From positions 1 through 52,911 of the IMG/VR virus record IMGVR_UViG_3300032242_000759: 52,911 nt of DNA; one strand, 5' to 3'. Shown one piece after another: positions 7,415 through 12,213 of the stretch; the first letter of the stretch is position 1; each line of letters begins with the position of its first letter. The notes beneath the pieces are model-generated. The model searched no databases. It worked only from the letters and a program-made list of their open reading frames with translations, and was not told the origin of the DNA. This DNA is from a virus. Its lineage: Duplodnaviria; Caudoviricetes. A program made the position numbers and the translations under genes.

Positions 7415-10312
7415 ATGGGTGCCGTTGTAAGCGCAGTTGAGAGTGTTGTTAGCGCGGTAGGCAATGCCGTAGGCGAAGTTGTCCATGCAGCAGAACAAGT
7501 TGTAGAGACAGTCGTTAAAGACGTAGTCGAGCCTGTTGCAAAAGTTGTTGAAAACACTGTTCAAAGCGCCATCAACGATCCAATTGGAACAATTGCCAGA
7601 GTTGCTGCTGTAGCCACAGGCAACGTCGAATTGCTGCCATTGATTGGTGCGGCTGATGCGGCAGCACATGGGGCTTCTCTTGACAAAATTTTGCTTAGTG
7701 CAGGCACATCGTATGTGGCTGGTCAAATCGGCACCAATATTGGCGATCAGATTGGTACTGGGATCAGTAACAACTTTGATGTTTGCTTGAGTTGCAAGGT
7801 ACAGGATGCATTAAACAGTGGTGTCAAAGGTGCTACAGGTTCACTTCTGCGCGGTAAAAATCCTTTGTGCGGCGCAATCAGCGGCGTTGTCAATAACGAA
7901 CTTAACTGTGGCATCAAGACTGCATACAAGTGCATCACCAGCGGGTCAAGTGATTGCGGCCCTAAATGCACAGCGTTGCCTATTGTTACTCGTGGATTGT
8001 CTAATGATTGCACTCAAGGCTGTGCATCAAAAGTCAATGTTGGCGCTTTACCAACCATTTCCAACAACAACGATCAAATTTCGAATAACCAACAATGTTG
8101 TGTCTCTACCAACAATAATTTAAATAACAAAAATTGTTCCACTAATACATCGTTCCAAGGCTACCCATCCGTTCAAGCATTTTTGAATGCTCAAAATCAA
8201 AAGTTTGCTGAGGATCGCGGATTTCCTGATTTTGCAACTGGAGCAAAATTTGGTTGGGATTGCGTTGCTTACAACAATCAAAACCAAACATGTGCCACCA
8301 CAAACATCAGCCCAGTAACCGTCACTGGTCAAAAAGGAAATTGTTGTGTTGGTGCACTGCCAACGGTAATGACATCAACAAATACAAATGTATGTTGCTC
8401 TTCTAAGGTCGGTGCATTACCAACTGCAAATGTTATTGGCAATTGCTGCTCATGCATTACACCTATAACCACTGTTACAAACAAAACAAGTGATTGCTGC
8501 ATACCTGTTACCAGAGGATTGACATCGGTCACAAGTAAAACGAACGATTGCTGCGTTTGCACAAGTCCAGTAACCACCGTTACAAGCAAAACAAATGATT
8601 GCTGCGTGCCTGCGATAGGTGGCTTACCAACCGTTACTACAACGTCGAAAACAACTGATTGCTGTGTATGCACCACACCAGCAGTAACGACCACTGCAAA
8701 GACAAGTGATTGTTGCGTTCCTGCGGTAGGCGGTTTACCAACCATTGCCACAACTTCAAAAACAACTGATTGTTGCGTACCAAGCGTTCCGTTAATTAAC
8801 GTAACTGGAAAATCTGGCGATTGCTGTAATTGTTGTATTCCCGCATTGCCACCCGTAACTGTCACAGGGAAAAAAGACACCTGCTGTTGCATTCCTGAAC
8901 TGCCTCCAGTTACCGTCACTGGCAAAAGAATTGATTGCTGCTGTATCCCTGAATTACCACCTGTTACCGTAACGGGCAAAAAATCAGACTGCTGCTGTAT
9001 TCCAGAATTGCCTCCCGTTACAGTAACGGGCAAAAAAATTGACTGCTGTTGTGTTCAAGAGTTGCCACCTGTCACCGTAACAGGTAAAAAAATTGATTGC
9101 TGTTGCATTCCTGAATTACCTCCAGTTACCGTAACGGGTAAAAAAATTGATTGCTGTTGCACTGTTGAACTTCCACCTGTTACTGTTACAGGAAAGAAAA
9201 ACTCATGTTGCTGCACCACAGAGTTACCTCCAGTAACTGTTACAGGTAAAAAAATTGCTTGTTGCTGCACTACGGAGTTGCCACCTGTCACCGTAACTGG
9301 TAAAAAAATTAATTGCAGCGATTGTTGTGATTGCTGCAAAATTCCGAATATTAATTTTCCAAAATTTAGTACTCCAGTTACAAAACCCAAAAAGCCTGCT
9401 AAGAAAACAACGACTGCATTGGGTGGTCTTGGATGCGGCGCTATTCCATGGCTGAATTCCGCTCCTGAAGTTTTAGCAAATGCAAACAGCCTGAGTCATA
9501 TTCTTAAAAGAGATGAGAACAGCTTGAAAAATATTCAAAATCAAATTAACCCAGACTTGTTGGAACTTATGAAGCAGCGCGGTAATTTTGGCGGCGTACC
9601 TGAAGTGAAAATTGGTGGCTTGTCAGCATTAGATTGCTCTCCAACTGGTTACGCTGTCGGTGGTTGTGTGGCTGGTTGTACGTTTTGCATGAACCAAAGT
9701 CCAAAGTACATGCCAAGATTTGTGTGCACTGGCGCAGATGTATTGTCTGGTTCTTCTGCATCGCGTCATGCTCCAACATCATTGGCTCAACTCAAACAAA
9801 TGCGTGCCCAAATTTCCCAAATGGGGAACATGGGCGGCATGGCACATGGTGGATTGCCACGCAAATATGCAGAGGCTGCTCCCGAAGGTCACCATCCTGA
9901 ATTCATTACCGGAATGACAGGGTACTATGCATGTGGTGGCGGCACTGGTCAGTCAGACGACATTCCAGCCATGCTCCATGACGGCGACTATGTGATGGAC
10001 GCTGAGGCTGTATCTGCGCTTGGCGACGGTTCTAGCAAGGCTGGCCGCGAAGTCTTGGATGGCTTCCGCAAACAAGTTCCACACCACGAATCAACCAAAG
10101 GCCAAGCGGTTCCGGCCAAGATTGCTGATGGTGAATACGTTTTCCCCGCTGGATTTGTGACCGCTATCGGTGGCGGCAGCAATAAAAAAGGCGCTGAAAT
10201 TCTAAATGGCCTGCGTGAGCAATTACGAATGCACAAAAGATCAGCACCCACCAGTAAAATACCCCCTAAAGCGAAATCACCGCTGGACTACATCAAGAAG
10301 GCGAAAGGTTAA
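7415..10312 (+). CDS. Internal virion / ejection protein 1: Cys-rich, tandem repeats, duplicated C-terminal GTGQSDDIPAML.DG.YV domain
   Basis: 965 aa; amphipathic MGAVVSAV N-terminus; about 75 Cys by manual count; located in the ejection-gene block. Confidence 0.75.
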   Translation: MGAVVSAVESVVSAVGNAVGEVVHAAEQVVETVVKDVVEPVAKVVENTVQSAINDPIGTIARVAAVATGNVELLPLIGAADAAAHGASLDKILLSAGTSYVAGQIGTNIGDQIGTGISNNFDVCLSCKVQDALNSGVKGATGSLLRGKNPLCGAISGVVNNELNCGIKTAYKCITSGSSDCGPKCTALPIVTRGLSNDCTQGCASKVNVGALPTISNNNDQISNNQQCCVSTNNNLNNKNCSTNTSFQGYPSVQAFLNAQNQKFAEDRGFPDFATGAKFGWDCVAYNNQNQTCATTNISPVTVTGQKGNCCVGALPTVMTSTNTNVCCSSKVGALPTANVIGNCCSCITPITTVTNKTSDCCIPVTRGLTSVTSKTNDCCVCTSPVTTVTSKTNDCCVPAIGGLPTVTTTSKTTDCCVCTTPAVTTTAKTSDCCVPAVGGLPTIATTSKTTDCCVPSVPLINVTGKSGDCCNCCIPALPPVTVTGKKDTCCCIPELPPVTVTGKRIDCCCIPELPPVTVTGKKSDCCCIPELPPVTVTGKKIDCCCVQELPPVTVTGKKIDCCCIPELPPVTVTGKKIDCCCTVELPPVTVTGKKNSCCCTTELPPVTVTGKKIACCCTTELPPVTVTGKKINCSDCCDCCKIPNINFPKFSTPVTKPKKPAKKTTTALGGLGCGAIPWLNSAPEVLANANSLSHILKRDENSLKNIQNQINPDLLELMKQRGNFGGVPEVKIGGLSALDCSPTGYAVGGCVAGCTFCMNQSPKYMPRFVCTGADVLSGSSASRHAPTSLAQLKQMRAQISQMGNMGGMAHGGLPRKYAEAAPEGHHPEFITGMTGYYACGGGTGQSDDIPAMLHDGDYVMDAEAVSALGDGSSKAGREVLDGFRKQVPHHESTKGQAVPAKIADGEYVFPAGFVTAIGGGSNKKGAEILNGLREQLRMHKRSAPTSKIPPKAKSPLDYIKKAKG
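8831..9316 (+). repeat. Nine in-frame 54-bp (18-aa) tandem repeats, CCxxELPPVTVTGKKxxC; degenerate copies extend upstream to about 8310
   Basis: PPVTVTGK occurs 9 times at a 54-nt period, with synonymous codon variation between units. Confidence 0.95.

Positions 10313-12213: not shown

Follow-up and report, generated by a model that had tools for sequence, protein, structure and literature searches.

Why should a phage crowd cysteine into two adjacent virion proteins when most homologues of these proteins have none at all? The question is raised by a freshwater viral sequence of 52,911 bases (Duplodnaviria; Caudoviricetes; IMG/VR record IMGVR_UViG_3300032242_000759, positions 1 to 52,911), which we call the window. 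It is a complete contig and represents a whole tailed-phage genome, with terminase, portal, and virion genes. Two neighboring genes of its virion module encode Cys-rich proteins of 965 and 632 residues, and the next two encode presumed ejection proteins without Cys. The features of this part of the window are as follows.

7415-10312, + strand: 965-residue presumed ejection or internal virion protein with 75 Cys (open reading frame [ORF] and counts)
7415-7783, + strand: N-terminal module of residues 1-123 that is Val-rich, lacks Cys, and begins MGAVVSAV (the first Cys is residue 124; hidden Markov model [HMM])
7784-9337, + strand: Cys-rich low-complexity region, residues 124-641 (counts, composition, and alignment columns)
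8882-9316, + strand: 54-nt tandem repeat, 8.1 copies, with units of the CCCIPELPPVTVTGKKID type (Tandem Repeats Finder and translation)
9347-9406, + strand: polybasic Lys/Pro stretch NINFPKFSTPVTKPKKPAKK, directly 3′ of the poly-Cys tract (comparison of Lys/Arg-rich windows among homologues)
9692-10312, + strand: conserved C-terminal domain (GYYACGGGTGQSDDIPAMLHDGDYVMDAE...), common to Cys-free homologues including that of Caulobacter phage GB2A (tblastn, residues 828-892)
10315-12213, + strand: 632-residue presumed ejection protein rich in Gln, Ala, and Gly, with 27 Cys and only 8 Asp plus Glu (ORF and counts)
12052-12117, + strand: poly-Cys tail of the 632-residue protein, residues 580-601, including CCCTCCCTCCCCTC and with Lys-rich flanks
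12076-12108: 12-nt repeat inside this poly-Cys tail (Tandem Repeats Finder)
12217-14049, + strand: 610-residue protein without Cys, part of which weakly resembles VanY and endolysins (Pfam, PHROG, and counts)
14057-15043, + strand: 328-residue protein with 0 Cys (ORF and counts)

Cys makes up 7.8% of the 965-residue protein, where it forms eight CCC runs, and 4.3% of the 632-residue protein, whose tail carries CCCTCCCTCCCCTC at residues 588-601 and which has 31 Lys plus Arg. An earlier reading of the sequence alone, the original prediction, had counted these residues by hand, and our counts reproduce its figures exactly (75 and 27 Cys, and 8 Asp plus Glu in the smaller protein). It was also right that roughly the first 120 residues of the larger protein and the whole of the next two ejection proteins lack Cys. 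The span it gave, 7780-12180, takes in the Cys-bearing parts but falls short of the whole genes. In a crude set of ORFs from the rest of the genome, we found 166 Cys among 15,369 residues (1.08%), which gives the Cys excess a binomial P of 3e-39 for the 965-residue protein and 3e-9 for the 632-residue protein. The window's other virion proteins contain 0.1-0.9% Cys.

Repeat arrays are difficult to assemble, and a misassembled repeat, a wrong frame, or sequencing error could yield spurious TGY codons. We consider such an artefact extremely improbable. A Logan contig of run X1, made by a second assembler, matches positions 7415-11831 with 0 differences, and two more X1 contigs cover the remainder, again with 0 differences. 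As X1 is the probable source run, and the sole run with full coverage, these contigs may derive from the source sample and do not count as independent support; such support is given by at least 10 other metagenome contigs that encode Cys-rich homologues. Moreover, one continuous frame joins the conserved N- and C-terminal domains. The TGY codons on which the original prediction depended are thus upheld by the identical X1 contigs and by homologues from other metagenomes. A second run of the study to which X1 belongs, X2, leaves parts of the stretch uncovered; it contains a low-depth (2.6) contig with scattered substitutions and one extra TGC behind position 12099, in the poly-Cys tail. This contig is from a related strain that differs in poly-Cys length. 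Among the runs listed as carrying the sequence, none was an RNA run.

To place the two proteins among their relatives, we collected 167 loci from three scans of viral contigs. The queries were the 632-residue protein, an alignment of a β-ketoacyl synthase (KS) encoded upstream, and an alignment of a conserved 672-residue virion protein encoded upstream of the KS. Of the 158 viral contigs with a KS relative, the best 80 were used; the 672-residue scan contributed the best 80 of at least 545. Another 25 loci came from a scan of genome contigs and two from GenBank phages. After removal of duplicates, there were 103 non-redundant loci with at least one full-length homologue. This sample is skewed toward the window's kin, and a poly-Cys sequence, CCCTCCCC, was itself one of the scan patterns. 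Even so, Cys avoidance appears to be the rule for this class of ejection protein. No Cys at all was found in 72 of the 103 homologues of the 965-residue protein (53,454 residues), in 62 of the 80 homologues of the 632-residue protein (26,236 residues), or in any of the 44 distinct homologues of the 610-residue protein (22,453 residues). A Cys content of at least 2% was found for 11 of 103 homologues of the 965-residue protein and for 15 of 80 of the 632-residue protein. The highest content was in locus L023 (11.1% in the 965-residue homologue and 8.8% in the 632-residue homologue); in L138, the two proteins contain 7.3% and 5.1%. The result is a sharp rule with a sharp exception, more than 100,000 homologue residues without Cys and one lineage with 4-11% in two proteins.

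Cys richness is inherited within a single lineage of the ejection-gene block. In a FastTree phylogeny of the 632-residue protein (80 rows, 329 columns, Cys masked as X), one group, with a support of 84, took in 15 of the 16 rows whose Cys content was 1.5% or more. This group nests in a clade of 17 rows (99*) that includes the Cys-free L099 and L101, and L147 stands apart. On this tree, the Cys state changes twice. On a FastTree phylogeny of the 672-residue marker (96 rows), the Cys state changes 8 times and the presence of a KS-containing gene cassette, described below, changes 11 times. We take the 8 Cys changes as a sign that the marker gene and the ejection block are mosaic with respect to each other, since only 2 are needed on the tree of the 632-residue protein.

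The Cys density of the two proteins also moves in step, and Cys never enters the 610-residue protein. The Spearman rho between the Cys fractions of the 965- and 632-residue proteins was 0.86 (n = 80), and 0.91 in the 16 Cys-bearing loci, values that ignore relatedness (L018, L019, and L020, for example, are near-identical). Both proteins are likewise enriched in L147, which lies outside the main Cys group (2.6% and 2.8%). That Cys is under selection, as the original prediction held, is plausible given that the 15-row group keeps the trait, that 62 of 80 homologues are without Cys, and that rho is 0.91 (n = 16).

Within the proteins, the Cys tracts are thiol-dense, free of aromatic residues and His, and of low complexity (CC/CCC, CxC, and CxxC), and they grow by tandem duplication. 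About half of the Cys residues of the 965-residue protein lie in the 18-residue (54-nt) tandem repeat. The core of this protein, residues 300-645, is made up largely of Thr (63), Cys (54 of 346 residues, or 16%), Val (42), Pro (37), and Lys (27), with 0 His and 0 Phe, Trp, or Tyr. The tandem repeat units of relatives differ from those of the window, one example being CSPCVPCSPC in L023. On the opposite strand of the window, two ORFs of 234 and 111 residues (8329-9033 and 9055-9390, −) contain PVTVTGGNSG.QQQ repeats; they most likely mirror the tandem repeat and are not genes.

Alignment showed that 62 of the 75 Cys residues of the 965-residue protein occupy columns that are filled in fewer than half of the 103 homologues. 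For the 632-residue protein, 15 of 27 lie in lineage-specific inserts, and the other 12 are in columns where at least half of the 80 homologues have a residue. At those 12 columns, the other homologues have Gly (17%), Gln (11%), Asn (10%), Ser, Asp, or Ala (9% each), Thr (7%), Lys (6%), or Glu (2%). The proposal that Cys stands in for polar or acidic residues therefore fits these 12 positions, where the counterparts are mostly Gly, Gln, Asn, Ser, Asp, Ala, and Thr, but not the 15 and 62 residues that lie in inserts or repeats.

The spacing of Cys differs by lineage. CC dominates in the window, CxxC in L023, and CxxxC together with Cx4C in L025. Gaps of the CC, CxC, and CxxC types exceeded the shuffled expectation in 16 of 18 Cys-rich proteins, the exceptions being the 965-residue homologue of L004 and the 632-residue homologue of L138. 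Within the Cys-bearing clade, conservation at Cys positions was below average (0.51 versus 0.62, and 0.43 versus 0.48). The unconserved spacing and the low conservation of position fit selection on Cys density rather than on fixed sites. Asp or Glu preceded Cys runs in 82 of 516 cases, compared to 37 expected, and Lys or Arg flanked them at about half of expectation; these counts are heterogeneous among lineages and are inflated by repeats.

At a slightly larger distance, the Cys tracts have a basic partner. A polybasic stretch lies directly 3′ of the Cys tract in the window (NINFPKFSTPVTKPKKPAKK) and in L001, L003, L004, L005, L008, L023, L025, and L138, with FKIKIKGPKGSKKTKIKTPR and IPKVTIPKVKIPKVKIPKVK as examples. 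In these nine proteins, the stretch has 4-9 Lys/Arg per 20 residues and is preceded by 5-24 Cys in the 60 residues upstream. In Cys-free homologues, by comparison, the most Lys/Arg-rich window has 0 Cys in the preceding 60 residues and is mostly located elsewhere. A polybasic segment thus always accompanies the Cys reversal in the 965-residue family.

What, then, are the tracts for? The general avoidance of Cys, its reversal in one lineage, the two genes that move in step, the density that is kept while positions turn over, the lack of His and aromatic residues, and the coupling to a polybasic stretch together argue for selection on thiols in bulk. Our preferred, still tentative, reading, to which we assign a probability of about 0.4, is that the Cys tracts are thiol cross-linking modules, which would carry metal-thiolate clusters while in the reducing cell and form local disulfides once in oxic water. 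In the cytoplasm of the host, the tracts would bind soft metals such as Zn or Cu in clusters resembling those of metallothioneins or phytochelatins. In the oxic exterior, at least part of the thiols would form local disulfides instead. Segments that are otherwise disordered could in this way become compact, protease-resistant staples within the capsid or within a conduit that spans the cell envelope, and the polybasic strand could hold the tracts against DNA or against anionic membrane surfaces. The original prediction also raised a redox-switchable cross-linked core and a metal sponge, either of which may hold.

Several points weigh against this reading. Since intermolecular disulfide networks would hinder passage through the tail channel, only local cross-links fit. 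The support of 84 for a single Cys-bearing group is not strong, and the correlation and the flank counts carry the effects of relatedness and of repeats given above. The Cys core (residues 296-645) was modeled by AlphaFold2 (AF2) from its single sequence; this model, which predicts one long β strand per repeat, is of low confidence, with a mean pLDDT of 57.9 (~65-79 in the repeats), and a search of the ESM Atlas with this core gave no usable match. Neither the 965- nor the 632-residue protein had a match at E ≤ 1 among PDB sequences, and the assignment of all four proteins as ejection or internal virion proteins is presumed from gene order and weak domain signals. Lastly, a Pfam search of 20 further window proteins revealed no thiol-oxidoreductase or metal-handling gene; ten more proteins were scanned by PHROGs only.

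The tracts resemble several known thiol-rich systems, and all of these likenesses, which extend to protamines and palmitoylated anchors considered below, are compositional. Metallothioneins are recognized by Cys clusters, a lack of aromatic residues and His, and a Cys content of ~30%. Like them, and like the (Glu-Cys)n phytochelatins, the tracts have dense CC, CxC, and CxxC motifs, a core that is rich in Lys, Ser, and Thr and has no aromatic residues or His, plastic spacing, and often an acidic residue before Cys. They differ in that they lie inside proteins of 600-1000 residues with conserved non-Cys domains, in that the core contains 16% rather than ~30% Cys, and in that no Pfam metallothionein family was matched. 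Keratin-associated high-sulfur proteins, which are disulfide cross-linked structural proteins, are similar in their short repeats rich in Cys, Pro, Ser, and Thr, of which the L023 unit is reminiscent. Among virion proteins, one study reports a siphovirus tail tube with inter-ring disulfides formed by two fixed Cys per subunit, which shows that disulfides do occur in virions (PMC13576161, 2026). The tube likewise belongs to a virion that meets an oxidizing environment; it relies on two fixed interface Cys, whereas the proteins described here have dozens of poorly conserved Cys and would leave the capsid.

The original prediction also offered the Cys residues as S-acylation sites for the gene cassette that lies directly upstream. 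The cassette and the gene that precedes it comprise the following.

3336-5354, + strand: conserved structural protein of the virion (672 residues), our marker for finding related loci (phrog_3287, E 1.9e-27; alignment)
5587-5868, + strand: acyl carrier protein (ACP)-like protein with a core of ~93 residues from MDFLELLN and an invariant DS.D; the longest ORF starts at 5536
5865-6980, + strand: FabF-like β-ketoacyl synthase (Pfam PF00109 and PF02801; alignment; profile against PDB KAS II)
6982-7413, + strand: 143-residue protein with a predicted GNAT fold, directly 5′ of the 965-residue gene (AF2, Foldseek, and VIA-align)

In the ACP-like protein, D37, S38, and D40 are invariant in eight of eight sequences. 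It has no Pfam match; a profile of the eight sequences gave 25 PDB matches, of which 22 are named ACP, all weak (E 0.015-0.35). A phosphopantetheinyl transferase was not found among the 20 other window proteins scanned with Pfam. In the KS, both Pfam domains score above cutoff, its best PDB matches are KAS II enzymes (E 1.6e-25), and Cys129, His271, and His304 are invariant in the six sequences aligned. The 143-residue protein matched no Pfam family at E ≤ 0.01. Its AF2 model, built from a seven-sequence alignment (pLDDT 74.7), is predicted to have a GNAT fold. Foldseek returned 45 PDB matches at E ≤ 0.001, all GNATs among the matches listed, including SpeG and PseH (E 4e-5, TM ~0.55). VIA-align placed the protein acetyltransferases PatZ (GNAT domain, Z 10.7), HP0935 (9.9), and RimI (9.8) at the top over 113-127 residues, with many ties among its rows. 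Directly 3′ of the 672-residue gene, before the cassette, there is also an ORF of 77-79 residues (YDPR.M.W..Y..LM.E.F...; 5354-5587 in the window). In the relatives inspected, it occurs whether or not the cassette is present (L110:6566-6802, L164:4066-4305, and L002:6298-6534); it has a possible counterpart in Caulobacter phage GB2A and matches no Pfam family.

We scored loci as Cys-rich when either full-length protein had at least 2% Cys and as low when Cys was below 0.5%. Cassette absence refers to the usual site, between the 672- and 965-residue genes, and L010 was left unscored. Among 49 cassette-bearing loci, 11 were rich, two were intermediate, and 36 had <0.5% Cys; among 53 loci without a KS at this site, four were rich (L138, L100, L147, and L163), one was intermediate, and 48 were low. 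Several cassette-less contigs are incomplete, among them L138 (8.6 kb), L100 (8.5 kb), and L163 (11.3 kb). A naive Fisher test on 11 of 49 versus 4 of 53 gave an odds ratio of 3.5 (P 0.049), but a sign test on independent pairs from the 672-residue tree gave a median P of 0.5. On the tree of the 632-residue protein, the 2 changes of Cys state compare with 10 of cassette state. The Cys group itself includes L138, L163, and L009, all without a cassette at its site, as well as L010, whose near-twin L011 is without a cassette. The Cys trait is independent of the ACP-KS-GNAT cassette, which for its part operates in many phages that offer no Cys for it to act on.

Since the Cys group contains cassette-less phages and since 36 of 49 cassette loci are essentially Cys-free, S-acylation by the cassette is unsupported, and the GNAT fold of the third gene argues in the same direction. 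In its general form, this explanation says that the Cys tracts are fatty-acylated, by the cassette, by host donors, or non-enzymatically, and anchor the proteins in a membrane together with the polybasic strand. We regard it as quite unlikely, and the cassette-dependent form as less likely still. It would account for the poly-Cys runs next to a polybasic stretch, an arrangement that recalls the palmitoyl-plus-polybasic anchors of eukaryotes, such as cysteine-string protein and Ras/GAP43-type motifs, and for the carrier, the KS with an intact triad, and the acyltransferase-fold protein encoded directly upstream; the naive two-by-two table also leans toward it. These points are outweighed by the Cys-rich loci without a cassette and the Cys-free loci with one, by the independent pairs and the unequal numbers of state changes, and by the sampling, which was biased to the window's kin with a poly-Cys sequence as one pattern. 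GNATs act on amines, and the cassette tracks the N-terminal module, as shown below, rather than Cys. In addition, the immediate flanks of the Cys runs are low in Lys and Arg and preceded by Asp or Glu, the opposite of a reactive-thiolate context, and no DHHC-type enzyme is present. We know of no protein S-palmitoylation system in bacteria or phages.

Three other readings of the tracts deserve mention. The tracts could be neutral, unselected expansions of TGC units by slippage, tolerated in disordered linkers. The tandem repeats at the DNA level, the repeat units that differ per lineage, the length variant in run X2, the low conservation of Cys positions, and the low-confidence structure are all as this idea would predict. 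It is nevertheless unlikely, because Cys is otherwise absent from the homologues, a sign that selection works against it in these families and that its direction was reversed in the clade. Neutral slippage would also have to explain twelve single Cys at well-aligned positions of the 632-residue protein, a diverged 15-row group that keeps the trait, two separate genes that keep pace while the third never follows, and the polybasic stretch that accompanies the tract. That stretch is the basis of another explanation, in which a protamine- or H1-like Lys/Pro segment binds packaged DNA and the Cys residues cross-link or zinc-bridge copies, so as to condense or pilot the genome end. Protamines do combine basic runs with cross-linking Cys, stretches of the PKKPAKK or KIKIK type lie directly 3′ of the Cys tracts in nine Cys-rich homologues, and the poly-Cys run in the tail of the 632-residue protein has Lys-rich surroundings. 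Yet the basic stretches are short, Cys-free relatives package their DNA without them, and no DNA-binding domain was matched in Pfam, all of which makes this role very improbable. Finally, the tracts may act as an oxidative ratchet, kept reduced or zinc-capped in the particle and oxidized on exit into the periplasm, where oxidation would help drive ejection and lock the conduit. Unfolded proteins would leave the tail, the oxidizing periplasm would act spontaneously or through host Dsb proteins, and successive disulfides between repeat units would prevent back-sliding and so aid protein ejection, leaving a rigid, protease-resistant conduit whose polybasic strand rests on the membrane surface. 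Import into the mitochondrial intermembrane space uses a comparable "folding trap", the disulfide relay, of which the ratchet would be a phage version. If true, the ratchet would account for a protein class that has either no Cys or Cys in abundance, and for the parallel course of the two proteins; we think it improbable, at about the level of S-acylation.

If the cassette does not act on Cys, its target must be sought elsewhere. With an HMM built from residues 1-110 of the 965-residue family, we detected the N-terminal module in 45 of 49 cassette-bearing loci versus 7 of 53 other loci. The module is Val-rich and Cys-free and starts M-G/S/A-A-V, with Gly (26), Ser (15), or Ala (4) at residue 2 (n = 45). 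GNATs are amine acyltransferases, so the predicted fold of the third cassette protein points to amine acylation. As the GNAT-fold gene also lies directly 5′ of the module, a better guess is that the cassette targets an amine of the N-terminal module rather than the thiols. Such a cassette would be a phage-encoded device for lipidating an ejection protein at an amine. HlyC-type toxin acyltransferases depend on acyl-ACP. In a further study, CdiC is reported to lipidate CdiA, a precedent for acyl-ACP-dependent protein lipidation (PMC8510554). The likeness, which concerns the cassette only, lies in carrier and acyltransferase-fold genes beside a large protein that would cross the envelope of a target cell; the differences are the added FabF-like KS and a 143-residue GNAT-fold enzyme without a detectable sequence family. 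With Cys uncoupled from the cassette, what a fatty-acyl machine does to an ejection protein becomes a separate question.

Some loci depart from this pattern at the N terminus. Cassette-less loci that keep the N-terminal module have an ORF of 120-137 residues directly 5′ of it, at the position of the GNAT gene (L110:6799-7161, L164:4251-4664, L165:11975-12388, L166:5243-5656, L174:12530-12892, and L131:5151-5552). We considered the ORFs of seven such loci as possible relatives of the 143-residue GNAT-fold protein, but the sequence of the one compared, that of L110, does not support this (hhalign against the profile of the window protein, probability 0.4%). Some other cassette-less 965-residue homologues have Cys-rich N termini. 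The one in L134 (5490 onward) starts MGCCKGFIGQ, those in L147 (4898-6034) and L138 (4387-7329) start MGGEAIPIVDCIIGCFIACELGCLICQYNC and MGMQKVQYGSGCSTWCVCVCVPCE, respectively. The L134 start recalls the Gly-2/Cys-3 dual-acylation motifs of eukaryotes.

The identity of the four proteins rests on their setting. The genes run in the order 212-residue structural protein, 478-residue fiber-like protein, 672-residue structural protein, cassette, and then the 965-, 632-, 610-, and 328-residue proteins, and the order of the block is the same in MW202545.1 and in Caulobacter phage GB2A. The passages on GB2A in PMC11053796 contain nothing on these proteins. For the 610-residue protein, we obtained weak matches to VanY (E 0.0064; 16.7 bits, compared to a cutoff of 25) and to the phrog_465 endolysin (E 4.6e-5). 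The fourth protein of MW202545.1 has an SLT domain according to its depositor's annotation. The sole PHROG match of the 965-residue protein covers 44 residues (828-871) and is to phrog_6090, a "tape measure" family. In Pfam, this protein matched no family at E ≤ 0.01, and the 632-residue protein only DUF5318, below cutoff. Known podovirus ejection proteins include P22 gp7, gp20, and gp16 and T7 gp14, gp15, and gp16. The proteins described here resemble these in that several large proteins are encoded directly after the tail or hub genes and in that most members of the family are Cys-free, and perhaps also in the weak peptidoglycan-hydrolase signature of one of them. They are unlike them in having no sequence match to a solved structure or Pfam family, in the 7.8% and 4.3% Cys with poly-Cys runs and a polybasic stretch, and in the acyl-carrier, ketosynthase, and GNAT cassette inserted in the block.

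Of all the parts of short-tailed phages, the internal or ejection proteins are understood least. They have to be stored beside pressurized DNA, pass through a channel that is narrow, and then form a conduit anew in the cell envelope. Full-text searches of the published literature turned up no description of Cys-rich ejection proteins and none of phage ACP-KS genes located in virion modules. The pattern described here points to a functional use of thiol chemistry in infection, be it through metal clusters, through disulfides, or through lipid thioesters.

Two further observations concern the phage at large. The loci L170-L183, with ≤83% identity to the 672-residue protein, are short phage-like contigs in freshwater metagenome-assembled genomes labeled as beta proteobacterium, Burkholderiales, or Limnohabitans; these labels are a weak hint at the host group. 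Elsewhere in the window, at 22006-22635, a 209-residue protein matches PF13759, a putative 2-oxoglutarate (2OG)-Fe(II) oxygenase family (E 1.2e-7).

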